This document shows positions 1-64,000 of a stretch of 64,000 nucleotides of DNA, one piece after another. Under the pieces are notes generated by a model. The model saw only the letters and a list, made by a program, of their open reading frames with translations. It was not told where the DNA came from and searched no databases. The position numbers were made by a program, and so were the translations under genes. Within the stretch, counting starts at the first letter, position 1. Each line of letters opens with the position of its first letter. This DNA comes from an uncultured virus (IMG/VR IMGVR_UViG_3300031760_000037) (Duplodnaviria > Heunggongvirae > Uroviricota > Caudoviricetes), in the IMG/VR virus record IMGVR_UViG_3300031760_000037; one strand, given 5' to 3'.

Positions 1-1
1 A

Positions 2-3000
2 GAATATATTAATCAACAACAAACTATTGCTAATGAAACTAATAATTGAGAATGGACTAATCAACAAATTGTTGACATATTTTGAACAACAGAAAATTTT
101 GATGCTTATCAAAAAGGTGAGAACTTCTCATTCTGAGATAACTTTATTAACAATCTAAGAGCTGCTAATAAAACAAAGTTCGATATAATGAAACAAAGAG
201 CTGCTGCATTAGTAGTCACTTCACAAAGTATAAAATGAAATAATCTACAAGAAGTATTTGACAAGTTAGCGCCAAAGGTTGACATTAATTGAACAACTGT
301 AAGAACTCCATTATCAAAAGCTCAGATATCAGAACTTGAAGCTACATATAATGCTATAGAACCAGGAACTCCTGCAGCACAACAATATATAATGCAACAA
401 ATGATCTCTGGATTTAATGTCCAATTGAATACTATTGCTGATGTCTTATGAATCTGAGAATGAAGTGAACTTCGGGATTCAAAGAAATGAGATTTCAAAA
501 AGACAATTAAAAGAGAAAACTGAGAACGTATCTCAGCAAGAGATTATATTATAGAAAGAATAAATGCTGAAGATAACTGATTAACTCAAGAGCAGAGAGC
601 GTTTATTGCTAATATGCTTTTTAGAACAAGCTCATTATGAATTAACTCATATTTCACAGATAGTTGAGCTTTATCAAGATTGTGAAAAGATTTTTTCAAT
701 AGTGTACTTCCAGCTTTAGAAGATAGTAAAGCTGCAGAAAATCGATTGTCATTTATAATGACTGATCAAGTATCTAAGATTTCAAAAATGCAAAAATCTA
801 AAGCTGATGCTTTAGAAGAAAGATGAGAAGAAACTCATAAGATTGATAATTGAAATGTTATTCAAAAAACTGCTGAAGAAATCTTAAAAGATAACTGAGA
901 TACAAGAGAAAACTGAGTATCTGGTAAAACTGAAGATGTTGAACAATTAACAGAAAATGCTAACTATGTAAAAGCTCATTTGCCAAGAATGGAAAGAAAA
1001 TGAAGCTTTGTTAATATTCCATTAAACAAAGATGCTGATCTTTGAGATTTATGAGCAATGAATGAATGAATAAAGATTAATTGAATTGATATCTGGAAAG
1101 ATGAAAATACTGATGCCAATATTAATAGTGATTCAGCAAAAGCAAGTTATCAAAGAATAAGATTCACATATAAAGATAAAACAACAAAAGAATATTATGC
1201 TGTTCCTCAATTAAACTATGCTATTAGAAATCAGGCTGAAGATGAACAAGCTGATGATTGGTTTAATTCATTCGTATTACTAAGTGCTGATCCAGAAGAT
1301 TGAGAAAGAATAACTAAAAGATCTAGCGTTATCTTTAGATGACCAGATGAAACATTCTCTAATAGTAAGAATGTAATATTCGATGTTTTAGATAAAGATT
1401 GAAATCCTGTAAAAGGTAATAGAGTAATTAACTTTACTCATAACCCTGAATCTGGATGGAGACTTGCTACTACTATTCAATTGAATAGACTTTCAAAAGA
1501 AAATAGGAATAGTGCTTATTCTAAATGACATGTGTTTGTTAACCAAAAACATAATGAAGAAATTAATTGAAAGAAAAAGAATTATTGGAGAACTGTTGAA
1601 TTGCCAAATGGTAAAGTAGTAGATTATGATACAAGAGAGATATATACAATAAGTGATATGATCATGGATGATAATGCTACTGGTATTACTATCTGATGAA
1701 CAACTTATGGTATCTGAAATAAGTTATTTGAAAGAGAACATCTTCGTACTCAGAATACAACAGATGAAATAACAGAAACAACTCCAGAAGATATTCAAGA
1801 AAAAAATGAAACTCTTATTAGATGGGAATGAGGTTTCACTCCTAGAACTAAAGCATGAAAGGATGCTATTAAAAAACAAAAAGAAATAGATAAGAAAACT
1901 GAAGAAATCCATGAAAAATGAGTTGAAGAAGCATTGTCAGATACTGATGATCCAACTGTATCAGAAGAAGAAAGTATCAATAATTATAACAAGTCTATCG
2001 ATCCAAGAGTTTATGAAAAGGCTAAAACAAAAATACAATTAATCGCAACAGAAAGCGATTGATTCAAAGTCTGAGATTATATTGATTTAAATCTATTGTC
2101 TCAACTTGATGGACGTATTGTAGATGATTGAAGTGCAGAAAGTGAGAATTATAAGACTCTTGTAAAGAAATGTATCATCTCTGACTTTAAAGATATCTCT
2201 GATAAAGATGCTTATGATTTAATCAATAAGTTATACTTTATTCAAAACAATTTTGATTACTTAATACAACAATGATATGATGAATATCTTGGTGTTTATT
2301 TTGCTATTGATGATCTTATCTTTGTACTAAATCAATGATTATGAGATAAGGTAAGAAAGATTATAGTAAGCGATGAACATGCATTAAAAGAATTTAATTG
2401 AAAATCTGTTGATGACTTCGTTGATAATGTAATGCCTGATTGATATTCTCCAGTTGAAATATGAATATCAGCTGACAAATATTGACATATAATATGAATA
2501 AATATTGGTAATAATGCGACTTCTTTATCTAGGAAATGAACTGTATTATTTACACACTCACATCCTAATTCATCATTCTTCTCATTGAGTGATATACAAT
2601 GAGCATATAACCAATGACTAGAACAAATATGATTAATATTGCCAGGATGAGTTCATCTTGAATATGTTATCGATGACTATTTTGAAACGGTAACTCATGA
2701 TAATAATGGTAATATTATTTCTCCATGGATGCATGAGTCGCTTGATTCAACTATAATGCAAGCTATGGATTTGGCTGCAAATAGTTGAGTATTCGATACT
2801 CAAAAATGGTGAGACTTCGATGCATTAGCAAAAGATTATATCTTAGCTTTTAATGATAAATGATATCTCACTGATTCAGAAAAAGACGCATTTAGAATGC
2901 AAGCAAAAGCTATCGCATATAATGTCTTCAATAAAATCTGAAAACAATTAAAACAAGAAGCTATTGATAGTTGAGATATTAATAAATATTACTTCTTTAA

Positions 3001-6000
3001 TAAATCTTGATTTAGTAGAGAGTCTCAAGCTTTAGCTTCAACAACTGCTAATCCATTATTAGCTGATTCATTATCACAATTAACTGATAGTGAAAAACAA
3101 ACTACTGAAAGATATCTTGATCAAAAATATGAAGTTATAGAATGTAGATCAGACGATGATTTCAAAAATCTTAGAAAGACTGCTAAAGCAAATGATTGAA
3201 TTTATACTTTAAGATGATGAGTAAATCATTTCGGAAACCCTTGGTCTTTCGAATGAAATGTGTGAACTATAAAAGCTAACTCAGCAGAAGAAGCTGTAAA
3301 TAATTATTTTGCTTGGTTAACTGGTAGGGATTTTCAAAAAGTTGAACCTAATAGAAGACAATGGATTGTTAATCAAATCCTTAGTTGAGAATTAAAATGA
3401 AAAAAAATTTATTATTATACAAAAAAAGTAACTAAAGGATGGAATTGATGAGTTTACTCTGTTGATTGAAAATACTGAAACACTGAAGAATACTCATATA
3501 AAGAAGATTATAATGAGCTATGAAATCGTGCATATAATCATGCTATGGTTTTGTGAATGCTTATTAATATGCCACAGTATATTCAACATGCTAATAGATT
3601 ACATACAGTTCCAGAAGTAGAAAAGACTTTAAAATCTCCAATATTAAAAAAACTTTTTAAACAAGATTTAATTGCTTTAGGAAATTCAAATAAAATTATT
3701 TGATACCAATCATCAAAATTATTTACTCCATTACTATTCAAATATAAAGAATGGAATAAACAAAATTCAAATGTTTATGACTACAAGAATAGTGACGTTG
3801 TATTTGTAAATATTCCTCACTATACAAAAATTAATAGTAGCGTATCTGATGAAGAATATCAAAGATCTGTAAGAGATTGTATTAATGCAACATTAGCTAA
3901 GGTAAAATTAGCTATTAATGCCTGAGCTCAATTTACAACATGAATGCAAGCTTCAGCAAATGAAAAAGAATTATATCGATTATTAAAAGATAATTGATAT
4001 GCTGCATACAATATGAACAATAGATATATCTTGTGGAAAAAAGTATGAACAGAAACTAATAAAGTAAATAATCCTTCACTATCTTTACAACAAGAAGTTG
4101 AAGCAATCCTAAGTAATGATGAAAAAAAGATTGTGGATCAGATTGAAGAAGAATGATTGCCAGATCCAAATACAAATAATATTGAAGAAAAGAACGCTGA
4201 AATAGTTGATGAATTCTCTCCATTATTAGAGAATGTTCAAAAGTCAACAATTGTTAGTGATATGAATGATTTGTGACTATCATTAGAATTGTTAGATAGT
4301 GAAACGATATGAACTATAATGCTTGCATACGTAAATTGAAAATGACTTGAAGATGTTATTATGTATTTAGCTTCAAAGGTAAGAAGTTCTAAATTAGATA
4401 ACTATATCAAAAATATTTTATGCAGGAACTGAGTATTAAATAGCAATGTTGAATATGACTGAGATACTGTTGATATGGCAATATCAAAGCAAGCTGCTAT
4501 GACATACATAAAAAAGAGACAATACTATATGGCAAATGGTAAGCCTATGAGTAATCTCTCTCCTGAAGAAATTAGAAAACTATCAAACGCTTTATTTAAT
4601 TCAAAAGTTCTATCAGAATTTACAGATAGAGATTTCAAAATACAATTCGTTAAAGCTTATGTTGATCAACAATTCTTATTCAAATCAGAAAAAACATTAT
4701 TGGATGATTTCATAAAATGACAAGAATATAAATTAAAACTTGCTGTTAACAATTATAAAGCACAAGCAAAGGCATGACAATTAATGGATACTTCTGAAGC
4801 TATTGCAGCTGCTATCAATGCTTCTGATTGAATATATAGTAAGCATGATCGAATAGTAGAATCATTAACTCAATACTTTATTGAAGATGTATTCAAAAGA
4901 AATTATAAAACTGCTGACGAAGATTTCATTAATAAAATAAAATCTGCAGTAGAAAAACAATTAGATGAAGATAGAGTTGTTGTGCTAGAACAACCAGTTG
5001 GTATTGATGATGCTAATAAAGGATTTGAGTTCATCACAGAAATTGCATGACTTCCAGATTCAGTAAGATTCTTAATGGCAGATAATATGTATAAGAATAA
5101 TGTAATCTGAAAATGAGTATATAATTATTTGAGGAAAATAGATCCTACTGTTACTGTATTAAACGGAGATAATGATATCTGATTATTATGAGCAGTTATT
5201 GTAAAACAATTTGATGCTGCTATGTGAGATTCTATTAATACAGTAACTGCAACTCCTTGAGAAAAAATAGCATTATTCTTAGATATCTATAGATATTATG
5301 CTACATGATGACATTCATATGAATGACTTATAAATGCATTAGAGCAGAAATATCAAAATAATTCTTCTATGATTCCAGTACTTCAGGAATTAAAATTAGA
5401 TATGGAATATTCTAAGAATGGAATATTCTCTCAAGATTTAATTGACGAAATCAATAAAGCTCCAGAAGCTACAGAAAATGCAGAGGATAATCCATATAAT
5501 GTATTTATCAGAAAAATCGAACCAGCAGGTGCTAACATAGAAGATACAATAATAAGTGCATTAAAAAAGCAATACTATGCAAACACTTCTGCATTCAATG
5601 TTATTATGAAATACGCTCCAAGGAATATTAAGAATAATATTTCTGAATGGATGGTAAATACAAATGATAAAGAACATTGAAGCAATATTGCTTTATGAAT
5701 GGTGATGTCATTTTTATCTGCTGCTAACAATAAAGAAATATTAACTAAAATCGCTATGGATTTAGCTAATCAAGAATCTACAGAATGAGTTCCTGAACAA
5801 GTAAATGCATTAGCTAGAGAAATTATTCAAGATTGGAATGATGATACAATCATGTGATTGCCTGCTATAACAGAGCAATTACACAGAGCAACGTGAATAA
5901 ATAATCTTGATCTTTCAAAATGAACAGTGCTTTATGTTTGAGATAAATGATGAGAATATAAACCTGCAAGTTGGGATACATTAGATTGAAAGCAGACATT

Positions 6001-9000
6001 CCCTTTAAAGGCTATTGCAAGCTTAGATGACTTAAATGCTAATGTAAATATTATTGTTCCAGAATGAATAAGTGTCCCTACAAAATTTAGGCAGGATCAT
6101 AATATTGTTAGAGTAAGAGCTGGAATAAAAGATTCAATGCTAGTACGAAGTCCAGAATCTAGTTATAAACACGATCTCGATGCTGTATGAAATACTATTT
6201 CATGACTATGAAAAGTATGACATGATGTATCTATACAGGAATGATTTACTTTCACAAATGATGAAATCTCAAAACTAAAACAAAAGAAGTTGACTAAAAA
6301 CTTCTATTGGAGAATTTATAATGAGATTTTAGTTCCTTCATTTCCATCATGAGCTAAAGAATTATCTCAAAGAGATTTCAATGCTATGATTAATTCAGAA
6401 TCAATGCAAGCTACAAAGCTTAGATTAATTCAAGCTGCCATAGCTTCTAAGAGTATGGATGATAAAATCAATGCTGCTACAATCTTAATTAATCAAGTAA
6501 CGAATTGAAAATTGGCATTACAAACTGATATCGAATGAACAACTAAAAGCATTAATATGGAATGAGCTGCTCAACAGTTTGAAGAAATGATAAACAAGTT
6601 GCTCGATCCAAAAGATGAAAATTATAATATGCAAAAAAAGATGCTATGGAATTTCTTTGCTGCATATTATTCATCATTAATGTCAATGTCTCATCCAACA
6701 GAATCTCCAATTTGAAGCTGAGTTGGTATTGATGCGTTCTATGATTTGAGCGTTAACTATCAAGCTGCTATGTGATTATTAAAGCAGCTTTGGGAAGATA
6801 AATGATATCCTACTTCTAAATACGCATATCTAAGATGAGAAAATGCTTTAGAAAGAAAAGATGAGAAAATCACAGATACTATCTGAGAAGTTATGACTCA
6901 AGCAGAAATTGATAATGAGTTCTGAGAATATCTATCTGAAGCATTATGAGATTATGTTAATGACTATGATTCAACTGTAGATGCTGAGTATGAAGAAGCT
7001 CAAGATACTTGATACGATCAAATTGAACACTTCGAAGTAGAAGATGAGAACTTTGAAGATAAAGATGCTATCGTATTCGCAACATTATTTAATGATACTA
7101 TCGTTGATAATCTCTATGATGTTGAAGATTATAATATCCATTATGATGAAGATGGTTCAAATAAGTTTATCTCAAAGAATCTATTATGATTAATAAGAAA
7201 TGAGACATGAGAAATCGTATCTTCTGAATCAGTTCTTGATATGGAAAATGCTAGTAAAAAAGAAGATGCTGTTATAACTATTTGAGACATGCTTGCATTG
7301 CAAACAATAATATCATGTAATGAATGATCTCCAGAAGAATTGGAAACATTCTTAGACCAGATATTCCAAGTTGCAGATTGAACTCCTGATACTGCTCCAG
7401 TAAAAGCGTTGTTTGAAAAAGCAAAGAGTGAGATTATGAGAGATACAAATAATACAGCTAATGTATTAAAGAAATTAATATCAAATGATTTGCTAAAATT
7501 CGATGTAATCTCAACAACTATGACAACAACTCAGAAGTTTAACAAATCTAAAACTAAAGCATTTAAAAGAAGATTAGTTGATACTATATTCAAATATAAT
7601 ACTAAACCAGTATCTCAAGCACAACTTGATGAAATCAAAAAAGAATTCGCTGAGTTCTTTACTGATAAGCAATGAAACAAACTTCCAAGCATATCTGACG
7701 ATCAAGTAAAAGCTGCTAATGAAATTAGAAATATGTGGAATGATAGAGAATGAGAAAATAAAAGAACTCTATATGTTCCATGACTTGCTTGAGTTTGAAA
7801 AACTACTACATTATGAGCTGCATTAAAAGCTATTCAAAAGCAAGAATGAGCTTATTGAGATGATGCTTCTAGAATAGAAGCTTGAACTCAAACTGCGATA
7901 ACTGATAACTTCTCTAATGAAGATGCAAGAATCTTAGATGAATTTAAAAAGAATCCAGATAAAGATTATTATGTAAAAGTTCATAATAAATGAAAAGATA
8001 TTCGGGTTAGATTTAAATGAATGGATATTATTACTCATGATCAATTAGAAGATTATACTGAAGATTGAGTAGTAAATGAATTCTGAGAATCATTATGATG
8101 AGTATGGCCTAAAGATTGAATATTGAGATTACTTGAAATCTGAGAATGAAATAAAAGATTTAGTCCTGATTGAAAATACAATAGATCAAAGACAAGATAT
8201 CTTATTAAAAATATTAGCACAGTAGATGAAAACTGAAATCAAATAACAGAAGAATCTGCTAAAGCTGCTATGTGAAATAATAAGATAATTGAAGTTCGTT
8301 GACTTGGAAATAATATTCCTAGAAGGCCAGAGCAAAAATGACCTGATAAAATAGAATGAACTTCAAGATTAAAGAATATCTATATCTTAACAAAGACTCA
8401 TTCAACAGTACAATCTATCAATGATGTTATGTGAGATAACTGATTAGTATGAGTTAACAGTGCTACTATGGATAGTAGGCTAACAACAAAATCGTCATCT
8501 TGATTCTGATTGTATTGATACTGAGCATCAAGTGAAATTCGTCAAGATAAAGAATTAGAGAATTGTCTTATCATTATAGATGAATCTCAGAATACTGATG
8601 ATCCTACAATACAAGCTATCATTAATTGATACTCTGATAAAAACCAAATGGTATTCTTATGAGATCCTCATCAGATATCTCAAGGTTCAACTTTCGCAAG
8701 TAAAGTTGCTAGTGCCGATGAAGAAGTATTGCCATTGGATTCATTATTCAGATGAACTCCAGATATTCAATCTGTTAACAAATTAAATGCTTTATGACAG
8801 AATGATATTATTGAATCTTGATATGTTGCTATAATCCCTGAAGATTCAAATGATTTCAAAGCATACGATAATCTTGAAGATGTCTTCGATTTGAAATGAA
8901 CTACAATGTATTCTGTTCAAACAAATGAAAGAGCTGAACAAGTTAATAGAGAATACTTTGAGTGGGCTACATGAAATAAAGGATGACAAGTTACTAAGAT

Positions 9001-11359
9001 AATATCATGATGACAAACATGAGCTGATAAAGCATGATTACAAATAGCAAAAACTTTATGAATAGCTACATGATGAACGGCTCCTAAATGATGGAAAACA
9101 GAAAATTGAGCAGATGAATCATTACAAGAATTCTGATTATCAGAAAGTGAAACTGATAATTATATGGAAAGAACAAAAAAGAATGTTGATGATTCAGATT
9201 GAACAATAATTCTTGCAAAGGATATAAATTCTTCATGAACAAAAAATACTATCGATTATGCTAATTCAAAAAATAAACCTGTATTTATTATCCAACCAAC
9301 AACAAGTCCTGAAGAAATTAGATCTTGGTTAGTGTTAAATGATATAAAAACATTAAATGTTGCTGGTAATAGATGAAGCAAATTTAAGACTTGAGAAATA
9401 AAAGTATATTGAAAAATCTTAAAAGATGCTTTAGATACATGAATAAAGAGTAAAGGTAGTAAACCAATTCCAACAATGGTTATTGATTCTATAATGATCA
9501 ATCAAGAATGAAAACAAGTTCAAGATAAAGCAGTTATGAATAAACGTAATCATCAATGAATTAACTTATGAGATTATAATCCAGAAGTTATAGATGGAAA
9601 ACAAGTTTATAAAAAAGAATCTGATGATAGCGTAGAAGTGTTCGTTCCTGTATTAAAGGATACAAAAACTGAAACTGTAAAGCCTATAATGACAATATTG
9701 AAAAAGCAATATCCTAAAAAGAAAATTCAGATTACAGCAACTGCTTTCGCAGTTACAACAAAAAAGCAATCTTGAAAAACTGTTGATAATATCATCCTTG
9801 ATTGAGAAATAACAAGTCCAAAGAATGACTTCTATTGAGAATCAAATACTCGTCAGGCATATGACTCATTTACAAGATGAGATAAGAAAGTTTATTATCC
9901 TGCTGATTCTAAAAGAATATTGTTCGCTCCTATTGAACAGATAAAAGAATTAGTTGATAATAACAATCCTAATATTTCATTTACTGCTCCTTCTGAAGAA
10001 GTTGCCACAACAGAAAAAAGGATTAATATCCCAATCTTCTATGCTAATGATTGAGTCAAAGAAACAAGAGATAAACTAAATACGATTATTGAATTGCTCG
10101 GTGAAAATATGCCATTTGAAGAAGTAGAATATGTTCAATGATTAATAGATTCACTTGAATCATTATATGCTATAGAACAGTCTTATAATCTAGAACAACT
10201 TCAATTAGATCGTAAGAAATGAACAAGATGATATTGAGATAAAATGGCTGAATGAAATTGAACGTTATTAAAATGAATCCAAATAGAAATAGCTCAGTTC
10301 TTTGACAAATATAAAGGTTCAATGGAGATAGATGAAAGTAATGAAAAGGATTATGAGAGCTTAGCTTGATGGGTATATGGTAAAGAAGTTAATACTCCAA
10401 ACATTCCTTCATGATCATTCTTTACTTCAGTTAATGCATCACAATCTAAATATTCATTTGAACTATTATCTAAATCTAATAAGGCTTTGAAGGATTGAAG
10501 CAGATGAATGTTCTTTAATGTCAAGAAGACTATTAATGCTAAATGAAAAGAAGTATATACTGTTGTTCCAGCTGAAGTAACTTGGAATAAAGAATATAAG
10601 CCTTGAATATTGACTAGTTGAAAAGATCAAACAAAAGGTGAGAAAAAGTTTGATACTATCAGTAAACGTCTTAATGAATATTGACAAGCATTCACTGCTT
10701 ATCAACAAGCTCAATGAGAAGAGCAAACTAAAAATGCGTTATCACAATTAGTTAATATGATTAATACTGATTTAGCTGCTCATGTCCAAGAAGAAGATTT
10801 ATATACTCCACGTGAAGTATCTACATATAATTGACTTGATGTAGATCCAGAATGATTAAAGAAGTTCTGAATAGATAGAATTGATGATAGTGTAATATCA
10901 GATGCAATGACTTTAGCTTATAGGCAACCTCCAGTTCGTGATGCAGACTGACATATAATACCAGATTCTGATCAATATAATCTTGCACAAACATTACTTA
11001 ATAGATTTAGTTGAATAACTGATAGTGAATGAAATCCTATAACATTAAGTGATGTTGGTAAAATAATTAAAACTCGTGTTCTAAGAGGTGATGATGTAGT
11101 ACCAGGATCTGAACGTACAATTAATTCATATGAAGAACTTGTTCCAAATTCATTAATGACTAACTATAATTCTATAAAAGATAGATTAGCTCAATGAGAT
11201 ACATCAGATTATCTTAAAGAAGACCTCATTGCATTTATAAGAAATATCAATAGTATAGATATGAGAGAATGAATGACTGTTTGACAAAATGAACAAGATA
11301 ACATTTATATAAAAGATATGATGATATCTTGTGATGATGAGTTCTCATGTAAACTTTAA
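2..11359 (+). CDS. Giant polyvalent protein, probably virion-packaged (>3,785 aa, 5'-truncated): JAB-like, DUF4326-like, SF1B helicase with inserted SLOG domain
   Basis: Frame 2 is open with TGA=Gly to TAA at 11357-11359; track fragments 4475, 5369 and 7409 share this frame. Motifs: VEIG...THSHPNSSFFSLSD (2453-2593); HFGNPWS...AVNNYFAWL (from 3227); Walker A GLAGVGKT (7781-7804); IIIDESQ (8570); VFLGDPHQ (8651); KIISGGQTGAD...LNVAGNR (8996-9373); AFAVTTKKQSGKT (9743); AYDSFTRG (9857). Confidence 0.85.
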
Positions 11360-15667: not shown

Positions 15668-17728
15668 ATGCCAAGAAAAGCGAATCCAGAACAACAATCA
15701 TTACAAAAGTACCTCACTAAAAAAACAAATTCAAATCAACAAATTGTTGATATTAAACTCATTCAAAAGATGAATGATAATCAAAATAGTGATGTAGCTA
15801 AATACCTTCACGGATTAGTTCCTAAGGTATTTGAATATTTTGATAATAATTTTTGGTGCTGAAAAATTGATTGATATAAAAAATATATTTGATATGCCTG
15901 AGATAGAGCATTTGCATTAGAACAGAAATGACAAGAATGGAGATCTAATATCGTAACTCCATTAACAAGGACATTTGCTGATGCTCTATATAATAGAATA
16001 TTTGATTCTGAATTCGCTATTGATGTTTATGCTACTACTCCTTCATGAGCTAAAGAATATACTGTTAAAATAGATTGAGAAGAAGTAGTATGGTCTCCAA
16101 AAAAATCTGCAGAAGCATTAAATGAATGGTGCTATATTACTTCACGTATTGATGATAATATCAAACGTGCTGCAAAAGATGCTGTAAATACATGAGATTG
16201 ATTTTGGAGAGTTGATATGAACGTGGCTGATGAATTACAAAACTGGTTAGATGATACTAAAGCTAATGATTGAAAAGCTTCTACTAAATGGTATGAGCTT
16301 AAAAAATGTAATGCCGTTGCTGAATATATTCCTTGGGAGGAAATCATCTATGATGCACATAGAGATTTCTATGAATCAGAATTTGTATGATGGAGAAGAA
16401 TAGAATCTGAAGCTAAATTTAAAGCAAGATGGGATTGGTTAGTATCAGTCTCTGACGCTACCTTTGATTATTTAAATAAAGAATGAAACAAGAGATTGTT
16501 CTTTAATAAGGACTATTCTAAATTTAGGAATCTAAAACAGTATGAAAACTTATTAAAGAATAATTCATTCTGATTTGTAGAAACTGATATCTATGGATTA
16601 GACTTTGAAAACATAAAAGATAAATGAGAAACTTATGAACATTGGACAAATGATACTTTAACAATCTGTAGAAATTGATATGTAATATATGATGGTCCAA
16701 ATCCATATTGAGGTATAATCCCTTTTGTGCATTTGTGATTATGAATTGCTGCCAATCAATGAGTCAACGATGGTATTTGTCAACTTTTATATTCTATACA
16801 AATACTCTATGACCTCGTATATAACTGATATGCAGACTACCTTAAAAGACATTTTAATCCAATGTATATGTCAACAGGCGCACAACGAATCGAATGATTC
16901 GAAACAGGATATCTTGATTGGGAGCCGTATAAAATCATTAAAAATTTGGGAGAAGGTAAGGTTGAAAGAATCGATCTCTGAGATGATGTGACGAATGGAT
17001 TTTCTATGCTTCAATCGCTCTACGAAATGGCTAGCCAGATTTCGGGAGTTACTAGATATACTTGAGCATGAGCTTGATCTTGAGTCGAAAGAAGTCCGAG
17101 AGCTGCAGACTATCAAGTCCAGATTACCCTTGAAGTCCTCAAACCTATTGTATCAAGTATATCGAAAGCTTTGGACATGACATCTAAGATCCGATGTCAA
17201 CTTGCAAAAACGAAGCTACCTCCAAAGTCAATTGTATCCATCATGGGTGAAAAAGGAGCAGAAACCTTCAAAAAAATCTCGCTCGAAGACCTCGAGAACG
17301 ACTTCACGATTAAATACAATAACTCGTCAATAGCTGATTATACTAAGACAAAAGAGTTAAATCAAATCCAAAGCTTCATGAATTACTGACAAGTATTATG
17401 AAATGATCCAGCTAGAAACGCTTATATCTTAGATCAAGAAGCTTTGATTAAGAAAGTTGCCGAATTACTTGAAATAGACTGAGCTTTACTTAAGCCAGAA
17501 GATTTACAAAGAATTCGTGAAGAATGGTGAATTGCTACTGTTACTGCTGATACTGCTGTGCAAAATGTTGCACAACAGGCTCAGGCAGAAGCACAACAAG
17601 CAGCAGTGCCAGAATGACAAGCTAATCCAGAATTAGCTATGGCTGAAGCCGATGCCGAACAAGCATTACAAGAGACAGCTCCAGCTGATATGAGCCAATT
17701 TGCAGTAGCGCCTACCGTCGTATCGTAG
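15668..17728 (+). CDS. Portal protein (686 aa)
   Basis: Track fragments 15668 and 17171 are in one frame. WRSNIVTPLTRTF, GDGFWRV, IYDGPNPYGGIIPFV and a Q/A-rich C-terminus are typical of P22/T7-type portals; precedes scaffold and capsid. Confidence 0.8.
16770..17333 (+). CDS. Candidate overprinted gene in the +1 frame inside the portal (~187 aa; alternative ATG 16809)
   Basis: Track ORFs 16725 and 16995 fuse via TGA; the frame has no TAA/TAG from 16719 to TAG 17331. Portal synonymous codons shift to CTC/CTT/GTC/ATC/NCG over this interval. Confidence 0.5.
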
Positions 17729-33580: not shown

Positions 33581-34660
33581 AAAAGACAGAATAACCTGAT
33601 TTTAATTATCTAACATAAAAAACTAATGGCTATATATAGATGAGATACTAAAGTATCTTGAATATGAAAAGGGTTTAGACCTGAGAATCCCTGAACAGAG
33701 GGACAGGTCTTAACCAAGACCGCCACTGGATATGCATATCAAGATGTTGAGGCATTGCCAGATTGAGGTGAGGTATGAAATAAACTTGCAAAGACTGCTA
33801 CTTGAAGTGAGTGGGTAGACTGAGAGTTGGTAGAAATAGAAGCTGATGATTATTCAGCTATGAAATGACCTGCTCCAGATGGATTTCACGTTCCTTTATC
33901 AACTGAGTGGCAATGACTTAAAACTATAATGGATTGATTGTCTCTAACTACTTGAGATGGTTGGAGAATTAATTTACATATGCCGTTTGCTGGTTACCGT
34001 AGTTCCTCTGATGCTAGCATCCTCGAGAGGGGTTCCCACGGTTACTATTGGTCGTCTTCTCCTTCTGCGTCTTCTTCTTCGGGCCGCGCCCGTTTCCTCT
34101 ATATGTATTCGTCAAAAGTCTACGCGGATTGGGACACCAAACGTTCTGGCGTGCACTCTGTCCGCTGTTTCAAAGATTCATATAAGACACCTACATCCTC
34201 TTGGACTGTAATAAATGGAACATTATGATGAGCTTGAATATTTCGAGATACAGTAAATTGACTAATCTCTATTACAGGAGATGGAACTACTTGATACACA
34301 ATACAAGACAAAAACCTATGAGCTACTACTGTGTATAATAACTGAGATACATTAACACAAGCTAATATGTGAAATATGTATCAATGGTGAAACAATTATT
34401 GATTTCCATCAACTTGAAGTGTAACAACTTCTAGCACACAAGTAGATGCAAGTTCATATTGACCTTGAAACTATTACTCTAGTTCTACGTTTATAACTGA
34501 AAGTGAGGATTGGAGTAGTGTAAAAAATGATAATCTCCGATGATGAGTAACTTGAGTATTAAATTCAAAGTATGCTTGAGGAGAAAAAATTGCAGAAGTT
34601 CCTAGTATATGAAAAACTTGACAAGTATTAACTAAAACTAATGATGGTTATGAATTTCAA
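32250..34660 (+). repeat. Paralogous ~0.9-kb duplication (about 32250-33170 vs 33675-34660)
   Basis: Collinear, near-identical peptides in the two adjacent fibre genes (GPAP.GFH.PLSTEWQG.KTIM, GLISITGDGTTGYTI.DKNLGAT, VDAS.YGPGNYYSSSTFI, GQVLTKTNDGYEF). Boundaries approximate. Confidence 0.85.
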
Positions 34661-34981
34661 AAAATGTGAAATTTCACAGATTATAATAAATCCGAGACAG
34701 TTGACAGAAAAAATGTATCCTGAGTTTATACTCTTAGCATATGAAAATCAATTCCAAGTAATTGAATATTGTTAATGCATATTTATGCTGAAAGGGGCGA
34801 CTATGATTATAATATTGATTTTGACGCTTGAACTTACAAAATATTCACTGCATTTTGTTGAAAAGTGTCACAATGATTTTTTGCTACATATCCTGTAACA
34901 AAATGACAAAGTACAATTCGTATGAATATGAGTTATGCTAAATTTACAATTAAGATTTTGTGATTTATACCAAATGCTTAA
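33626..34981 (+). CDS. Receptor-binding protein with permuted CLec-like domain, probable DGR target (451 aa)
   Basis: Contains track ORF 33980: LHMPFAGYR...GYYWSSS...GVHSVRCFKD; paralog of the upstream fibre domain. Confidence 0.8.
33985..34175 (+). other. DGR-type variable region (VR)
   Basis: By my count 33991-34170 is 53% GC and 14% A, with no A from 34048 to 34100. Encodes the G.R...YWSSS...SVRC ligand-binding segment with A-free constant codons. Confidence 0.75.
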
Positions 34982-38586: not shown

Positions 38587-39060
38587 ATGGATTGATACAG
38601 CACTTGATGAATGGTATTACAATTATGATGATGACTTACATTCGGGATGGTATTAACCTATTTCTGACTAACCGCAGAATGATTAATAATCCTTACTGTA
38701 TTCCTATGAATTGATGTATTATTCTGATTATTAGATAGCTATATCGTGACAAAGGATACCTCATCAAATAAACTCATAGAATGATTAGCTAGAAAATTTA
38801 CACGCCGAGCATTGCCATTTATTTTCATAGCTGCATTGAGGTGAGTATGATACGATTGAATAGAAATGATGGCGAATGTTGTAATGTCTGTTCTAATTAT
38901 ATCTGAATGATACTCAATTCTTTGACATATCTATTCTATAAACTATTGAAAAAAATTACCAGAAATTGATGCGCTAAAAGCATTAATGGAAAAAGTTGCT
39001 GATATTTTTAGATGAGAATTATCTAAAAAAACCGATGAGAAAAAAGAACAAGATAGATAG
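38587..39060 (+). CDS. Holin (Phage_holin_4-like, 157 aa)
   Basis: Multiple TM segments; FLGIDVLFGLL...SSNKLIEGLARK...IISEGYSILGHI pattern. Confidence 0.75.
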
Positions 39061-39449: not shown

Positions 39450-40385
39450 ATGAGAAGTATTACCGATGAGCAATTAAAATCATTCGAATGATGTCTCACG
39501 CTTCCAGAAGAAATGGCGGAAGCTACTGATTTTAAAGCCGAAGAAGCTATATCAATTAATAAGAATATAAAATTACCAGCATCATTTTCTTTATGAAAAT
39601 GGATTTATAAAACTTCTAATCAATGATCATTATGAAGCTGCACAAGCATGTGAACTACACACTCTGTGCAGATTTTAAATGTTGCTAAAAAATGAGAGAT
39701 TCCAACTAATTCAAATATAATAACGCCTAACCGAAAAGATCTATGGTGAAAAATGTGACATTCTATTACAAAATATGACGGATGAGATTATGTTGAAAAA
39801 GCCGTATCAACAGCATTAAAACAATGAATATTAATATTAGAAGATTGAAGCTTAGCTAAGTTCGACTGATATGCTACAGCAGAATGGGACTCAGCTTCTA
39901 ATTACAATATAAGCATAGATACAATGAAACGTTATCTATATAATTGAAATCCTATTGTACGATGCGTAAGATGAGATAAAAATATGTGGCGTGAAATGCT
40001 TAATTGAGAAGTGAAAACAAGACCAATCAATCCAACATGATGACATTGTATTGCCTTAGTATGATGGGACGAGTCATGATTCTGGTTTATAAATTCTCGA
40101 GAAGCTAATGATGATAAAAAACTAAAAAGTAGATTCCATATTACTTATGATAATATGAGGAAAATATGAATAAGATTTAATTATAGATATTGGGTATTAT
40201 ATACAAAGCAAGATGCAAAGGTAGATCCAGAATATTTAAAAAGAAAAAATCAAAATTTATTGATTCTCAAAGTTTTGAAAAAAAACTATGACTCAGAATT
40301 CCCTGAAATAAAACAAGCTATTGTAAACTTTTCTCAAATAGTTAGAAAAAAATATCCAGAAATAAATTCTGAATTACCTTTATAA
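39450..40385 (+). CDS. Papain-like (C1-type) cysteine peptidase (311 aa)
   Basis: NQGSLGSCTS (Gln/Cys), GGHCIALVGWD (His), FWFINS-W(CGA) (Asn). Confidence 0.85.
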
Positions 40386-44839: not shown

Positions 44840-45167
44840 CTTCTCAATATACAATGTTATATAAAATCTGTTTGTAATTTCAAGACGTGTCGTCGAGTGC
44901 TACAAAGTTCTGTCCTATCTTATTTTTCTCAACGAGTTCTGGATCATCATCTTTAACTCTCTTCATAATTGTCACGATATTACCACGTTCATCAATAACA
45001 TATCTTCATTTATTTCCATGCACAGTAAACTGCTTATATGTTTTTGAATACTGTGCATTCTTCCAAAAAGTAACGATGTCAGCAATGACTTCCGATTCAG
45101 CTCAGATAGGAATCGAAAGGCGTTCCACCATTCTTTTCTTTGCTTCTAACGTAAATCTTAAAGCCAT
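44829..45167 (-). CDS. Hypothetical protein (112 aa)
   Basis: MALRFTLEARKRMVER...YVIDERGNIVTI; the ends weakly resemble RelE/BECR-type small proteins. Confidence 0.65.
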
Positions 45168-48100
45168 TATAACATTATTCATAAACTAAAAATAACTTTT
45201 TTAATTCCATTCCAAAACATTTCTGGACAGAATGTTGAAGCATTTGCTTTCTCAACACTATACCATGTTTGGAAATTCTTACCATTACACATGAGATTAA
45301 CAATACCTTTAATAAGCAGATTAACTTTAATCACTGCTTCTATATCTAATTCAACGAATCACTCATCAACTAATATCTTTATTCTATTTATAATCTCATC
45401 TCAGTATGAACAAATGAATATACTTTGACCAACAGTCTTTACAAACCCTGGCATGATTTCATTTATCTTTTCAACATCGTTATCGTAATTAGTAATTGCT
45501 GTTTTGATAGTTGATAAATCTATTTTAATTACAGAAGTAAAATTATTTTGTCAATAATGATTATATTTATTATCACTGAATTGATCAAATCTTCAATATG
45601 ATATTAAGCTCTTCTCTTGCTCTGCTCTATAAATCAAACCATAAACTAATGATTCAATAGTATTAATTGGATCAGCTCAAGTAGTATCTCTAACATTAGA
45701 TACATCAGCTTCAACATTATATTCTATCATATCAATGAATTCATCCTTTGTTCATAGTTTAAAACAATCTACATATAAAAGCATACCATAGCATTCAAGG
45801 TCTCACAATCTTTCATTCTCAAATTTACTTGATATAAGTTTTTTATACGCTACAAGCTTTTTAAATGTATTATCTTTATCAGCATATAATCACATTATAG
45901 TAGGATATAATACTCCACGAATTGTGTGGTTCTGTAGCCATCTCAATTCTTTTTCTCATAATTCTTTATTAGCATTTCTAATAGCTTTAGTTAACTTTAC
46001 TTTAATTATTCTGTTATTAGCTGAGTCATCTTTGATAGATGATTCTCAAAAATAGATATTGCAACTTCTCATCTTCACAGCCTTCTTAGCCTGGATTCAA
46101 CCAGTCATTTTAGTTTCTTTATTGGCTGCTCATCTGATTACAATTTCTTTAGCTTCCTGCTTCTTCTGATCTGAATCAACCTTTGATGTCATTTCTTCAT
46201 AAAGCATACAAGCTCAATCAAGCATTGAATCTATCAATGGCTGAGGTGTTGTCATCTGCATTGATAAATACTTCTTACCAGATTTATATCAAAAGCTAGA
46301 TTGAATTGCATAACGAAGTGAACTCTTACCAGTCTCAGATCATCAATAGATATTAAGATTTGGTCAAAGTGTTATTCATAGATTGGCTCACATAACATCT
46401 TCAACCATATTCATAAATTGACAACTCCATGATGAAACAAATATTTTACCATATACTCTGAGATCTCACAATTTTTTTATGTGTTCTCGATATTCTTCTA
46501 CTGATACTTCTGGCAAATTATTATCCATAATATCTCTTGCAGTATCATCTACACTCTCAAGAATATCTGGCCAGTCTCAACAAATACCAGTATCTCATAT
46601 TACACAATATGGCTTACCTGTTTTTTTATTTAATCAATATTTTGAACCTTGATTTCACCAGATGGTTTGCATTCAATATTCTTCAAAGGTATCAGCATTC
46701 TCATCGCACGCTGCATCTAAAGCATTGAAAAATCTTTTACAAATCTCATCTGTTCATAAGAAGTGTAATCAAGTATTATTTCTTGTGAGTTGTTTTTCTA
46801 ATTGTCATGCATATGTGCAAGCAGTTATAGCAATGACTCTACCATCAACTTCAACTAAATATCTAATAGTATATTCTTCAAAGTCTTTCACGTATGAACC
46901 ACTAGCATCTTTCTTATACATAGATATAGATTCTTCTTCATTGTTAGAAATAAACTTTGCTCATTCATTTATCATAACCATTCTTCAAACAAAGTTAATT
47001 CATCCTTTATCAAAGATCATCATTCAACCTCACATATCAACTTCCTTACCAGTATTAGTTTGTTTAATATAATTACACATAACTTTATCTGGTCTACATT
47101 CTACATAGCAACTAGGCTTTCAATATCTTTTAAATCCAACATTAACTTTAGCTCAGTTTGATATTAAGCTTTCATTTATTTCTGGACAAATCTTTTTTAA
47201 ATAATTTCTAACTTCATCATATATTTCAGAAGTCATTGCTCATGGCTTGCAAACGAATTGTTGCATATACATGAACAAAAAATTTATCATTGGTCAAGCT
47301 GGTCTGTTATGCTTTGAGAATCAATCATTAACATATCATCAACAATAATTACATTCTACTCATTCTTCATTATATCATACCGATCAAGCTATAGCTTTCT
47401 TAACCATATCTTCAGTCATTAAATCCATACGCTTAAATTTATATCAGCTTGTATGTTCCAACATTCAATTAGGTTGTCTGAACTTTAATGCTCAATATCA
47501 ATGATCAAAAGCTATATATCATCATGGTAGATTATCTATTACTTTTCACCAGCTTAATCAATGTAAAGTACAGCAACGCCATATCTCTCTTTCAGATATA
47601 CTTAATTGTTTACTTCATTTAGAGTCAATATACTTCTTCGTATGAACATCGTTCCTATACCAGTTGAGTCTTTTAACGCATTCAGGATCTTGTACTCGCT
47701 TTTTAATTTGTTGGAAAATTAATTTAACTCGTCCTTTTTTAGCATATCTTATTGTGTCTTTAGCTACAGTGAATGCGTCTCAGAATTCTGCAACATGTAT
47801 TATTTCGTTTCACTCTTCATCCATACTATCAAATCTTGTCCTCTTTATTGGAAAAGGTAAACATATGTATGCGCTCTTATAATCTGTAGCTTCCTTCTTA
47901 AACTTTCTATGAAGTGAACCAGGCAATCTCATCACGTCATTAATGTTTGTTCTTGATGAATCTAACATTAAATCACTTCATACTATTTGATGAAATCATC
48001 TCATATAAAAATTATAATCTTCACCAGACATATCTTTAAAAAATGGATCATCCAATTCTGTTGGATCAATCATAATATATGCATGAAATCATCCTGGTGT

Positions 48101-48724
48101 AATATTAATCCATGAGATATTATTTACGATGTCTTTATAAAAGTATTCGTTAATACCTTCAAAGGCATCAGGTGTTAGTTCTCTGATATTATCAAATCGC
48201 CAATTTACAAATTCAATTGGATCAACATCTTTCCAATAATTATATTTAGATAGTTCTTCTGGTAATGGATATCAAACTTTATCATAATCTTTCTTATCAA
48301 TATCTAACGGAATGCAGTACATTCACTTTCAAAGTTCCTTATTCAATGTTAAAGTTTTTCTTCCTCATTCCATATGTATAAGCCTTCGCCTGCCATTTGG
48401 TGTGAACGCGATGGCACGGCTAGGTATATCTTGTACATGCATGCTCATGTATTGGTTATAAGTCTTATTGTCGTGTAAGTCTCATAATCAGTATAAGTAT
48501 GATCCTAATGTACTCACATGTCGCCATGGTGTCTCAGCTGTAGGTATTAATGTTTCATCAGTTGTTTTATATTTCTGTATTTGTTCATCTAGTAAAGAAC
48601 CTTTTACACATTCAGTTGTATAAAATTTCCATACCATTTCTGGAAATAGCTCTATTAATTTTGCGTGCTGGTTCTCAATATCTTTCTGAAATTTAGATAA
48701 AGTATTTCAAGTAGGTAATTTCAT
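45167..48724 (-). CDS. Primase-polymerase (AEP/RepB-like) fused to a P-loop helicase (1,185 aa)
   Basis: AFTPNG, CIPLDID, NITPGGFHAY, DVMRLPGS (AEP motifs); C-terminal LNIYGGSETGKS Walker A near 46322-46360 and MLYEE Walker B-like. Confidence 0.8.
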
Positions 48725-48762
48725 TATTGAGAAATCTATGAAGTAAAAGTGACATAGTGATA

Positions 48763-48789
48763 GGGACACAAGCATATAGCTTATGTCCC
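48763..48789 (-). promoter_or_regulatory. Hairpin in the primase-helicase leader
   Basis: Minus strand GGGACAUAAGC-UAUAU-GCUUGUGUCCC, 11 bp with one G-U. Confidence 0.5.
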
Positions 48790-54058: not shown

Positions 54059-54060
54059 AT

Positions 54061-55288: not shown

Positions 55289-55335
55289 ATTATTTTATGT
55301 TATCAAAATAAACCATAATCTTTAAAGGTCCTTTA

Positions 55336-55839
55336 TTACCCCTTGTTTGTTCATTCTGTTTCTTCCTTATGTAAAATAAAAGATTTATCAACAGGTATCT
55401 TCTTCATTACAACCTCTGTATAAAAGTCATAGTTATATGCCTTCCAGGTATAATCTGGATATTTGTAATCTTTGCTATAATCTCATTTATCATGTCTTTG
55501 TCTATTATAAGTTTCAAAACAATCAGTTGTAAATACAAAGTTTCAATATCTAAATTCAGAACATTCATCCCGATTTATACTTCCACAATCTTTTAATTCA
55601 TCTGAAAAATAATATTGCATTAGTTCAATAAAACTTTTTTTTGCTTTATTATAATCAGAATAAACTTCTGTAAAATTATTTCAGTCATTCTCATCATATA
55701 CTTGAACAGCATATATATATTCTATTCATTTCTTTTGTATCAAGTTATCTACATGTTTAACTATTTTATTTAGTTCATCATGTATTAATGTATCAGCATC
55801 ACTGATAGGTTTTAATTCTGTATTATTATATTGTAACAT
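55336..55839 (-). CDS. Hypothetical protein (167 aa)
   Basis: Open with recoding. Confidence 0.65.
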
Positions 55840-55840
55840 T

Positions 55841-56314
55841 TTATTCTAATCAATAAAAAGATAAAAGGTCATCGGCGAAACTACTACCGAAGTCTCGTGA
55901 GTAATGCTCTCCTCACCAATATAAATGAAGTTCTGCTGTTCAATCTATTTCCCGAAATACACCTGGTCAACCTATTGTAATTGTCAATTTATATATTGCA
56001 TCATCTCTATCTAAGATTTCAGATGAGTCATACGGATCAACCTTCATTCGTTTCTCAATAGATAACAACTCATAGTAATTATCTATTGCTTCGTTGATTC
56101 AGTCTCGATCTGTATTATATTCATCAACAACTTTACTTCAGTCTTCATATTCATTGTCTTCTTCATATACAACAAATTTTTCTACCTCATCTTCTCATAA
56201 AATTTCTTTAGCAATCTCAATACGTTCAACACTTTCTGGTGTCTCAGTATAATAATCATGCCATAATAATCGTGACTTTTTTTCACGTTCAAAATACTCT
56301 TGTGTACTACTCAT
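55841..56314 (-). CDS. Acidic hypothetical protein (157 aa)
   Basis: ...ITIGGPGVF-W(CGG)...LYWGG motif. Confidence 0.65.
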
Positions 56315-56648
56315 CTTTTTCTTTATTAAGATTTAAAACTTTGTTCTTAAAATGTTTATAAACAATTTCTAATCATAAAATGTAATCGCGAACTTCTTCG
56401 TCGCTATCAAACATTATATCATCTTCAAGTTCATTAATCAAAACAATAGCTCATAATGTATCATCGTAATAGCTTAAGTATAAAGCTCATTCACCTTCTC
56501 AAGCATACGATACAAGTTCTTCAATATAAAAATCCATATTACCTTCAGTAGCCTTTTCAATAATATCAACAATTTTTGTTTGACTAATTCTTGTCGGATA
56601 ATGAAAGTCTTGATCGGTGATTACATTAAATAATTTTTCTTCGTTCAT
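56307..56648 (-). CDS. Acidic hypothetical protein (113 aa)
   Basis: Open with recoding. Confidence 0.65.
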
Positions 56649-56700
56649 GTGAATATATAATAAAAATAAAAAAGGCGAAACTAAAATTGCCTCGCCTTAT

Positions 56701-56730
56701 GGAAGTTTAAAATAAATATTTAATCAGGGG
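56701..56730 (-). promoter_or_regulatory. Bipartite motif CCCCTG-N21-TCC (copy 1)
   Basis: One of four copies upstream of minus-strand gene blocks. Confidence 0.55.
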
Positions 56731-56824
56731 ATTTCTGTTACATAACTTCTTCTCTGATTAGTATGAACACTATTAATAATAGCATTCAGATAATTAATCT
56801 TATGAGTCGTTTGTTGCTCATCAA

Positions 56825-59391: not shown

Positions 59392-60225
59392 TTATCATCT
59401 TAAAGATTTAAAAGTAATTTTATTCTTATCAAAATAAGAATGCACTCGTCAATAAACCTCATTAGGTGTATATCACCACGGTCCTTTTCTAGCACCGTCA
59501 ACACCTAATCAAATTTCTTTTAAGTTAAGATTGAATGTCCAGTCTGAAGTCAATTCTGTTTCAACTCATCACGCTCATTCATATGGACTAAATAAATATA
59601 TAGCACTTCATTCTTTAACAGTCAATCTTCTAGCTTTCATAATCTCAATCATGTCGTGAAGGTTTCAATTATAATGTATGCATATTCATAATTGTCACCA
59701 CGCTCAATCATATATCTCTCTCATATGAGTTGAACGTTCAGTCCGTCATTGAGATTTCTTAAGTGATCTAAAATATTTTAAAGGATATCTATGCCTATCA
59801 TATATATCATCAGGTATCCACATTGTCTTTTCAGGATCAGTCAATAAATAAAAGTTATAAGTTATCCTATTAAAATGTTCTATGTTTGCATCAAACTTGT
59901 CGCAATCATACATTGCTTCTCGTAATGCTGAATGCAAATCTTCTTCGTCTTCAAGTTCAGGATGTTCATCTACGAATGGTTCAAAGAATGTTCTATAGAA
60001 TTGGTCTTGCTCATACTGGTCATACCAATCTTTACAACATATGAAATCATATACGTATGATTCTGGATCAAGATAAGTTCATTCGTTGATTTGTTCTTCA
60101 ACATAATCCAGTAACTTTCTTACTGTATCATCTTGAAAATAATCATCATAGTCTCGGTATAGAATAAGCTTATCCTGCTTCTCCATTCGTTCTTTACAGA
60201 TAGATTTTAATTCTTCTCGTTTCAT
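59392..60225 (-). CDS. Hypothetical protein (277 aa)
   Basis: Contains track ORF 59746-59937 in frame. Confidence 0.7.
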
Positions 60226-63055: not shown

Positions 63056-63958
63056 CTAGAAACGCCATTCTCATTCTTCGGAAGATGAAGAATTATTATC
63101 TATTCAGGGGGTAGCATTAAAGCTAGTCATTCAGTCTTCTCAATATAAAGGACATTGTTCTCTTAATGGACACCGTTTACAAGCAAGACATTTCTTTGGG
63201 TTGAACTCGTCGTTATCATATGCCTTTATATATTCAGTTAGTAAATGATAGATCAGTCTTTCACTGTCTTCATATTTATAATTCAATTCTATTATCTGTA
63301 GCTGTGGTGTTTTTTGTTTGGTCCAAACGAAATAAGTAAAGTCAAAATCATCTCTCTTTTTCAGCTGTGGAAGGTTAGAAGTTATGCGTCGCATCCGTGG
63401 ATAAAGTCTTCGTTGAAGTTTAAAATCAGGTTCATTCTTTCACCACTTTGACTTCGCTGTTTTACAGTCTCAGATAGTATAATCACTGAACACTCGGTCT
63501 GCTGTTCAAGTTAAATATATCTCGTGATATGGTGGAAGGCTAACGTTGTTAGCACTTTGATCCGCGTCCATAAGTATACGCAAGGTCATACGTTTCTGTG
63601 TATATAATGGGTAATGAGTTTTATATTTAGAATCAGCTGGTAAGTCTTTCCATAGCTTTGCGAACTGGAAAAACATTTGGTATTCAGGATGTTCAGTTGA
63701 GTTTCATAATACACGTAGCACTTCATCTCATAATTTATCTCAGTATTGATAAGCTGTCATAAGTTGTTCAGCTATATCTCAGGTATAAAAAGCATTACGT
63801 CAATTCTCTGATGGTTTAGATTTATCAAACTTATAACGGTAAGGACAAGTCATAAATCATTCCAATCCTGTTGGATGTAGCTCGTGTGTTGTTGGCGTTG
63901 CGGTTGTATTTATATTATGTGTACGCCAATCTATTGTAGGTATTATAATGTTATCCAT
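63056..63958 (-). CDS. Cas4/RecB-like PD-(D/E)XK exonuclease with Fe-S Cys cluster (300 aa)
   Basis: FMTCPYRY, LTGTAD, IGDCKT, LQ..LY, CLACK-W(CGG)-CPLREQC. Confidence 0.85.
63080..63110 (-). promoter_or_regulatory. Bipartite motif CCCCTG-N22-TCC (copy 4, in the 3' tail of the Cas4-like gene)
   Basis: Plus-strand gga 63080-63082 and cagggg 63105-63110. Confidence 0.45.
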
Positions 63959-64000
63959 TTGAATTGTGATGGTTAGGTGATAAAGGTTTTATATTTTTTA

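Follow-up and report, generated by a model that had tools for sequence, protein, structure and literature searches.

Evidence for a three-codon change of the genetic code in a tailed phage of ruminant guts: TGA as glycine, CGA and CGG as tryptophan

Which amino acids do TGA, CGA and CGG stand for in a phage whose genes are filled with in-frame TGA? The question is raised by a stretch of 64,000 nucleotides (hereafter the window) from the uncultured virus IMGVR_UViG_3300031760_000037 of IMG/VR (Caudoviricetes). The window is most of a ~75-kb tailed-phage genome from ruminant guts that uses an altered three-codon code throughout; its source contig measures 74,586 bp in the protein-collection listing of the window's own protein, and ~10.6 kb thus lie outside the 64 kb. 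As judged by comparison with related loci and homologous proteins, the three codon meanings are very probably TGA = glycine, CGA = tryptophan and CGG = tryptophan. A preliminary description of the window had proposed this triple reassignment, and it was upheld by a codon-substitution test among relatives, by a column test over 188 homologs and by a scan of all codons.

Evidence for the three codon meanings

Translated with NCBI table 11, the window holds one open reading frame (ORF) of at least 150 amino acids, and with table 25 it holds 43. Taking only TAA and TAG as stops, we obtained 62 non-overlapping ORFs of at least 80 amino acids, with 19,574 codons, making 91.8% of the window coding; 45 of them end in TAA and 17 in TAG. 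GC content across the window is 0.29–0.36. The features on which the argument turns are as follows.

2..11359, plus strand: giant ORF of at least 3785 amino acids, open at the 5' end of the window; 216 TGA, 4 CGA, 2 CGG
7781..7804, plus strand: Walker A motif G-L-A-G-V-G-K-T, all three Gly written TGA
15668..17728, plus strand: P22-like portal protein (Pfam); 2 CGA
31193..33580, plus strand: tail-fibre paralog 1; CGA at 32735, 32876 and 33038
33626..34981, plus strand: tail-fibre paralog 2; CGA at 34244 and 34538, TGG at 34385
38587..39060, plus strand: holin (Phage_holin_4_1); 18 TGA, 1 CGA
39450..40385, plus strand: papain-like (C39_2/C1) peptidase; CGA at 40098-40100 in N-S-[CGA]
45167..48775, minus strand: replication-module protein of 1202 amino acids, without a Pfam or PHROG family
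53393-54058, minus strand: DUF1281_C protein (Pfam)
59392..60225, minus strand: ORF of 277 amino acids, function unassigned; 5 CGA, 1 CGG
63056..63958, minus strand: PD-(D/E)XK (Cas4-like) nuclease; CGG at 63175-63173 in C-K-[CGG]-C

Relatives were collected by a search with the nuclease, which returned 49 database homologs; 28 of these, aligned together with the window protein, led to 16 metagenome loci at 42–72% identity. A tail-fibre motif added two IMG/VR contigs, giving 18 related loci in total and 18 window genes with relatives. The ORFs of the window and of all loci were translated with CGA and CGG masked as X and aligned by BLASTP, and the codons opposite each window codon were read off. 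This test at the DNA level covers genes within 30–38 kb and 53–64 kb; the other structural and replication genes could be compared at most at the protein level. The protein columns were built from 188 database homologs: the nuclease contributed 49, tail fibre 2 contributed 119 (not counting the entry for the window itself) and the 1202-residue protein 20. Most of them are stored as table-4 translations, and therefore a W in a homolog stands for TGG or TGA and an R at a tryptophan position for CGA or CGG.

With 1025 occurrences TGA is the main glycine codon (GGA 153, GGT 183, GGC 22, GGG 15), supplying 1025 of 1398 glycine codons and 52 of every 1000 codons overall. As had been noticed in the preliminary description, it fills all three glycines of the Walker A motif, where 7781-7804 reads TGA CTT GCT TGA GTT TGA AAA ACT, and TGA 32768 in tail-fibre paralog 1 stands opposite GGA 34277 in paralog 2. 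Window TGA codons gave 445 aligned pairs; the codon of the relative is TGA in 252 of them, GGA in 36, GGT in 29, GCT in 17 and GGC in 8. In the protein columns that correspond to window TGA (107 sites) the homologs show 68% W and 16% G. We scored each candidate amino acid with a BLOSUM62 likelihood that uses only the unambiguous codons of the relatives and weights each site once; for TGA, glycine was chosen over 89 sites with the runner-up residue 70.8 bits behind. By these comparisons, TGA encodes glycine in this phage.

The ORFs contain 68 CGA and 23 CGG codons beside 241 TGG, 466 AGA, 55 AGG, 99 CGT and 13 CGC. At 35 of the 91 CGA/CGG sites (26 CGA and 9 CGG) a relative could be aligned at the DNA level. 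TGG was found in at least one relative at 18 of the 35 and CGA or CGG at 26, and the arginine codons AGA, AGG, CGT and CGC at none, so that nowhere did the two codons align mainly with arginine. The result holds for each codon taken separately, with TGG opposite 12 of the 26 CGA sites and 6 of the 9 CGG sites and arginine codons opposite neither. Window TGG sites behaved in the same manner: of 50, relatives had TGG at 37, CGA or CGG at 12 and arginine codons at none. Sites with AGA, AGG, CGT or CGC (n = 76) were opposite such arginine codons in 41 cases and opposite TGG, CGA or CGG in none (Fisher p = 1.5e-15 for CGA/CGG against unambiguous arginine sites). Counted as pairs, window CGA (100 pairs) was opposite CGA 51 times, TGG 31 times, CGG 8 times and other codons ten times (CAT 2, TGA 2, TTA 2, GAT, GAC, AAT, TAC), and window CGG (46 pairs) was opposite CGA 22 times, TGG 18 times, CGG 3 times, TTT twice and ATG once. 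Window AGA (181 pairs) was opposite AGA in 58, CGT in 20, AAA in 17, AAG in 10 and others in the remainder.

The likelihood placed tryptophan ahead of arginine for both codons, with a lead of 71.3 bits on 13 informative sites for CGA and of 42.6 bits on 8 sites for CGG. The controls came out as expected: TGG was assigned W, and AGA and CGT were assigned R. When every codon was scanned in this way, with identical codons in the relatives left out, the only large-margin deviations from table 11 were TGA (70.8 bits), CGA (44.5 bits) and CGG (25.7 bits). The other flags had margins of at most 5.3 bits and concerned single-codon amino acids or rested on 1–4 sites. Two of them, TGG = F and ATG = L, were set aside as artefacts; they are to be expected of codons that are the only ones for their amino acid once identical codons in the relatives have been dropped. 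CGC was read as arginine on 3 sites, and AGG had 4 sites. The arginine meaning is thus kept for AGA and CGT (likelihood) and for CGC (scan), and the stops are TAA and TAG only.

The protein columns agree. Columns at window CGA (11 sites) contain 46% W and 48% R, and those at CGG (2 sites) 29% W and 65% R, with K and G at zero in both. TGG columns (27 sites) show 66% W, 15% R and 0.1% K. By comparison, AGA and AGG columns (43 sites) show 0.8% W, 62% R and 15% K, and CGT and CGC columns (18 sites) 0.6% W, 70% R and 5% K. The columns in which R and W are mixed without K or G therefore form a separate class, which takes in every CGA/CGG site tested. Five Pfam families have a match that includes such a codon, and in four of them the score rises when CGA/CGG is translated as W: P22_portal from 57.3 to 59.1 bits (+1.8, CGA), Phage_holin_4_1 from 40.4 to 43.1 (+2.7, CGA), PDDEXK_1 from 40.3 to 42.9 (+2.6) and Peptidase_C39_2 from 21.9 to 24.1 (+2.2), the last thereby reaching its cut-off of 24.0, with Peptidase_C1 also emerging at 16.9 bits.

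Individual sites bear out the examples that first drew attention to these codons. CGA 32876 in Y-Q-[CGA]-G-N-N-Y-G-F-P of tail-fibre paralog 1 lies opposite TGG 34385 in Y-Q-W-G-N-N-Y-G-F-P of paralog 2, and each of the three CGA codons of paralog 1 (32735, 32876, 33038) faces TGG in one or more relatives from IMG/VR. The CGA columns of paralog 2 are W/R mixtures without K or G over the 119 homologs, and so, over 20 homologs, are all 6 CGA columns of the 1202-residue protein in their mixing of W and R. In the nuclease all 5 CGA/CGG codons, including the CGG at 63175-63173 in the Cas4-like C-L-A-C-K-[CGG]-C, are opposite TGG in 4–8 relatives. Of the 6 sites in the 277-residue ORF, three have TGG in 3–4 relatives and two keep CGA. 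The tryptophan position of a motif described as WCxVKH does read CGG (44256, in H-D-M-[CGG]-C-I-V-K-H), and no relative was found for this site.

N-S-W is a motif of papain. In the peptidase its tryptophan position is the CGA at 40098 in F-I-N-S-[CGA]. A full HMMER search gave 60 proteins, of which the 33 with 200–400 amino acids were aligned; the column opposite this codon holds W in 20, R in 7, Y in 3, F in 2 and A in 1. Eight of these homologs look standard-coded by our own classification by composition (W ≤2.7%, G ≥5.2%), and they have W in 5, Y in 3 and R in none, within motifs like N-S-W-G. The N-terminal part of the peptidase has a weak match in the PDB to the cathepsin L-like 3qj3 (E 0.049), and the protein is probably the lysin of the phage.

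Decoding, host and competing readings

On the tryptophan reading, CGA and CGG make up 91 of 332 tryptophan codons (27%), spread over 39 of the 62 ORFs. No tRNA gene was found within the 64-kb window by ARAGORN or Rfam, nor any other Rfam RNA family, and no tRNAs were found in two IMG/VR phages, 96–100% complete, that have TGG at CGA sites of the window. Since the phage has 1025 TGA and 91 CGA/CGG codons but its 64 kb contain no tRNA gene, the reading of these codons presumably falls to the machinery of the host. Such a host would read TGA with a tRNA-Gly(UCA), would have tryptophan tRNAs reading CGA and CGG, and would lack release factor 2. In a standard-code host nearly every phage gene would terminate early, and a host with table 25 only would be expected to introduce tryptophan-to-arginine changes in 39 of 62 ORFs, conserved positions included. 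Correct proteins would thus be made only where all three reassignments are in force, most likely within a ruminant-gut member of the Absconditabacterales. This order is the probable host, as suggested by the match of the code alone.

The two classes of reassigned codon are distributed differently along the genome. CGA and CGG account for 57 of 150 tryptophan codons (38%) in the 39 early and replication ORFs of the minus strand (36804-63958) and for 27 of 160 (17%) in the 16 structural ORFs of the plus strand (188-34981; Fisher p = 3.7e-5), while the TGA share of glycine codons is alike in the two sets (0.70 vs 0.75). The skew could reflect a minor CGA/CGG-reading tryptophan tRNA of the host that tunes expression or tests the host.

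The published basis to which the preliminary description had appealed is as stated there. CGA and CGG = tryptophan on top of UGA = glycine is predicted for Absconditabacteria in the relevant passages of PMC8629427, and the tryptophan meaning of both codons is also stated in those of PMC13092985 and bioRxiv 10.64898/2026.04.02.715157. The first of these describes a tRNA(UCA) with glycine identity, tRNA(UCG) and tRNA(CCG) with tryptophan identity, and a tRNA(GCG) left for CGU and CGC.

The strongest competitor leaves the code as it is and changes the host, to another lineage with TGA = glycine (BD1-5/Gracilibacteria), or supplies the decoding from phage-borne tRNAs in the outside 10.6 kb. We judge it rather unlikely. 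In its favour, CGG = tryptophan is predicted for some Gracilibacteria (PMC8629427, in its account of that group), and 64 kb of the 74,586-bp contig were seen, so that the ~10.6 kb beyond could hold tRNA genes. Two scans of GTDB species genomes, one with the PD-(D/E)XK alignment and one with a degenerate tail-fibre motif, moreover gave no relative, prophage or co-binned contig, and hence no direct link to a host, which also counts against the Absconditabacterales assignment itself. Against a different host stand the restriction of reported CGA = tryptophan to Absconditabacteria (in the parts of PMC8629427, PMC13092985 and bioRxiv 10.64898/2026.04.02.715157 that deal with it) and the zero tRNAs both here and in the two 96–100% complete IMG/VR phages. 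An Absconditabacterales host remains our preferred reading.

As for the code itself, several observations weigh against tryptophan for CGA and CGG. All support for the codon meanings is comparative, and arginine reassignments are described in PMC13695967, where it discusses them, as awaiting experimental verification. At 17 of the 35 sites tested at the DNA level no relative has TGG, most showing CGA or CGG only, which is uninformative. Among these is D-P-E-[CGG]-E-[CGA]-E-P-K at 58683/58677, whose context looks arginine-like. Site 60219, residue 3 of the 277-residue ORF and so near its N-terminus, is opposite GAT, GAC, AAT or TAC. Of the 91 sites, 47 had no relative among those examined, the sites covered being the 35 at the DNA level plus 6 in the 1202-residue protein and 3 in the peptidase, these nine at the protein level only. 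Finally, DUF1281_C is the sole Pfam family to drop with W, from 40.1 to 37.3 bits (−2.8), its match contracting from 107-174 to 122-174; the codons concerned are residues 106 and 121. The only solved DUF1281_C homolog, Api92 (PDB 2ijr; weak match, E 0.044), has S opposite residue 121, and hence this homolog offers no argument for arginine.

Could the recoding be partial, with only CGG = tryptophan and CGA = arginine, or ambiguous, with a mixture of tryptophan and arginine at both codons? CGG-only reassignments are known elsewhere, the Firmicutes cases and some Gracilibacteria being named in PMC8629427, and ambiguous translation is, as that paper puts it in this connection, excludable only by experiment. 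CGA taken alone nonetheless passes, with TGG at 12 of 26 sites, no arginine codon and tryptophan ahead of arginine by 71 bits; and the two codons interchange freely, window CGG being opposite CGA in 22 of 46 pairs. We therefore think partial or ambiguous recoding improbable.

Still less credit can be given to plain table 25, in which CGA and CGG are arginine as before and the columns of mixed R and W reflect a real arginine/tryptophan polymorphism. Arginine-like contexts such as D-P-E-[CGG]-E-[CGA]-E and K-L-Q-[CGA]-R-L-Y-P-[CGG]-M-[CGA]-R speak for it, as does the 2.8-bit advantage of R in DUF1281_C. It does not account for the codon substitutions, in which arginine codons are opposite none of 35 CGA/CGG sites vs 41 of 76 true arginine sites and TGG is opposite 18 of 35, nor for the lack of K in CGA/CGG columns, K making up 5–15% of arginine columns; and in the K-L-Q motif each of the three CGA/CGG sites is opposite TGG in 5–8 relatives. 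Table 4 (TGA = tryptophan), which is used in the public protein collection for the window's own protein P0050 and leaves reading frames just as open, has next to no chance of being right, since tryptophan would be 6.5% of residues and glycine merely 1.9%, the Walker A motif would become W-L-A-W-V-W-K-T, TGA swaps with GGA, GGT and GGC and never forms a block with TGG, and the likelihood gives glycine for it.

Comparison with known codes

With TGA = glycine and CGA and CGG = tryptophan, the phage has the same three codon meanings as the code that Codetta predicted for Absconditabacteria (SR1) (Shulgina & Eddy 2021, eLife, PMC8629427). As in those bacteria, as characterised there, its GC content is low, AGA is the main arginine codon and CGA is commoner than CGG. 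CGA, at 35 per 10,000 codons, falls within the Absconditabacteria range (<37), and CGG, at 11.8 per 10,000, exceeds the <7 given there for every species except one. The two sets of figures can be compared only roughly, the published frequencies being for Pfam-aligned columns and ours for all ORF codons. Unlike that work on bacteria, in which the prediction is made from Pfam columns, the present case concerns a phage and the evidence comes from codon substitution among relatives.

Among viruses, the closest cases are phages that use code 25 and whose predicted hosts are Absconditabacteria (mBio 2023, PMC10746230); they likewise have dense in-frame TGA and share the TGA = glycine code with those hosts. 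Their host links are reported to come from spacers, whereas that of the window phage comes from the code match. In that paper code 11 was weighed only against code 25, by coding density, and in its main text 'CGA' and 'arginine' occur 0 times. A second parallel is found in PMC8629427, where two phage assemblies are predicted to use AGG = methionine and come from the same samples as AGG-recoded Bacilli. There, as here, an arginine sense-codon reassignment of the host is followed by a phage without a tRNA for it; as presented, those phages differ in the codon and the amino acid and have unchanged stops, while the window phage has three codons changed.

The window falls outside NCBI table 25, in which all codons but TGA are standard, because CGA and CGG behave as tryptophan codons. 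As the preliminary description had warned, table 25 alone mistranslates the phage: TGA is correct and the frames are open, but 91 tryptophans, at 27% of the tryptophan codons and in 39 of the 62 ORFs, become arginine. Table 4 also leaves the frames open, and under it the same 91 tryptophans become arginine and 1025 glycines become tryptophan. To our knowledge, no NCBI table has CGA and CGG as tryptophan. A full-text search of the literature, with most subscription journals outside its coverage, found no phage with CGA/CGG = tryptophan. The phage is thus a well-supported, expected counterpart of a known host code and is itself apparently undescribed so far.

Gene content, relatives and significance

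Structural and lysis genes lie on the plus strand (188-41169), and the early and replication genes mostly on the minus strand (36804-63958). Tailed-phage (Caudoviricetes) genes are recognised by Pfam (P22_portal, Phage_holin_4_1, Phage_tail_C) and by PHROG (tail protein and baseplate wedge subunit). Further features are:

27530-34981: tail-fibre modules (Pfam)
49808-51217, minus strand: ResIII/SNF2-type helicase (Pfam)
51217-52182, minus strand: AAA_24 ATPase (Pfam)

The giant ORF at 2-11359 has AAA_19, AAA_30 and PhoH-like matches at residues 2727-2857 and a cpYpsA SLOG domain at residues 2938-3067 (118.6 bits, Pfam). It is followed by an ORF of 1364 amino acids without a family match, the two lying directly upstream of the portal gene. 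When 14 further proteins were compared with PHROGs, one was named (27530-29998, tail protein/baseplate wedge) and the other 13 had no match. No Pfam or PHROG family for a major capsid protein or a terminase was matched within the 64-kb window. The ORF of 536 amino acids at 18804-20414 is presumed, from its position only, to encode the capsid protein, and a tblastn search with it against GenBank phages (INPHARED) gave no match; the terminase gene may lie outside the window. Two cysteine-rich proteins without a family match were also seen, one among the virion genes (20524-21345, plus strand) with C-C-G-N-K-S-I-Y-C-S-K-C-S-K-C-C-E-L-K-G-C-C-C-S, and one (43209-43850, minus strand) with a C-terminal G-G-C-C-K-R-T-R-G-C-C-K-G-R.

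The tail-fibre module D-K-N-L-G-A-T-T-V-Y ... Y-Q-W-G-N-N-Y-G-F-P (32700-33100 and 34200-34600) is common to 478 database proteins. All 119 listed homologs of the tail fibre are rich in TGA (W above 6.5% in table-4 translation), and a degenerate form of the motif with TGA matched twice in IMG/VR and not at all in GTDB species genomes; as far as the hits seen go, circulation of the module is confined to TGA-recoded phages. IMG/VR searches with the portal, the helicase and the PD-(D/E)XK alignment returned no relatives. One relative, a metagenome contig of 76,352 bp, has PD-(D/E)XK-like pieces at both ends (one matching residues 21-300 at 64% identity, the other residues 2-106 at 52%), with no exact overlap of the two ends; the pattern could stem from two copies that have diverged or from the assembly.

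Five runs, which come from three studies and are labelled bovine or sheep gut metagenome, contain at least half of the sampled words of the region 15668-20411, and one metatranscriptome run contains 0.23 of them. The run that holds it best may be the source sample. Over 36800-56799, all 30 bins were covered at a likeness of at least 80% by contigs of four runs from four studies, labelled sheep gut, bovine gut, goat gut and 'metagenome'. Among the 40 differences listed of 1934 in this region, a single one affects a CGA/CGG codon (39286 A>G, in two runs); it changes CGA to CGG, which is synonymous under either reading and thus uninformative.

The standard tables all mistranslate these phages. 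In the public collection, entry P0050 is the table-4 translation of 33626-34978, and W exceeds 4% in 166 of the 188 homologs of three genes, which together indicate that the whole group is mistranslated there, with tryptophan in place of glycine and arginine in place of one in four true tryptophans. Such mistranslation damages homology searches, structure prediction and family building.

More tentatively, this may be the first virus lineage shown with an arginine-to-tryptophan reassignment, and one could picture a large family of ruminant-gut phages isolated by its code from other hosts; we hold this broader proposal to be possible, with real doubt. CGA and CGG would in that case be no leftovers: together they are 27% of the tryptophan codons, and from one relative to another they exchange freely with TGG.

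A sense-codon reassignment common to phage and host means that such a code is no barrier to viruses, and a phage with the three-codon code is expected to have a very narrow range of hosts. Its relatives, numerous and diverged, offer natural material on which a code so far only predicted can be tested. The substitution record of these phages may thus serve as evidence, independent of Pfam columns, for the Absconditabacteria code as it is truly translated.

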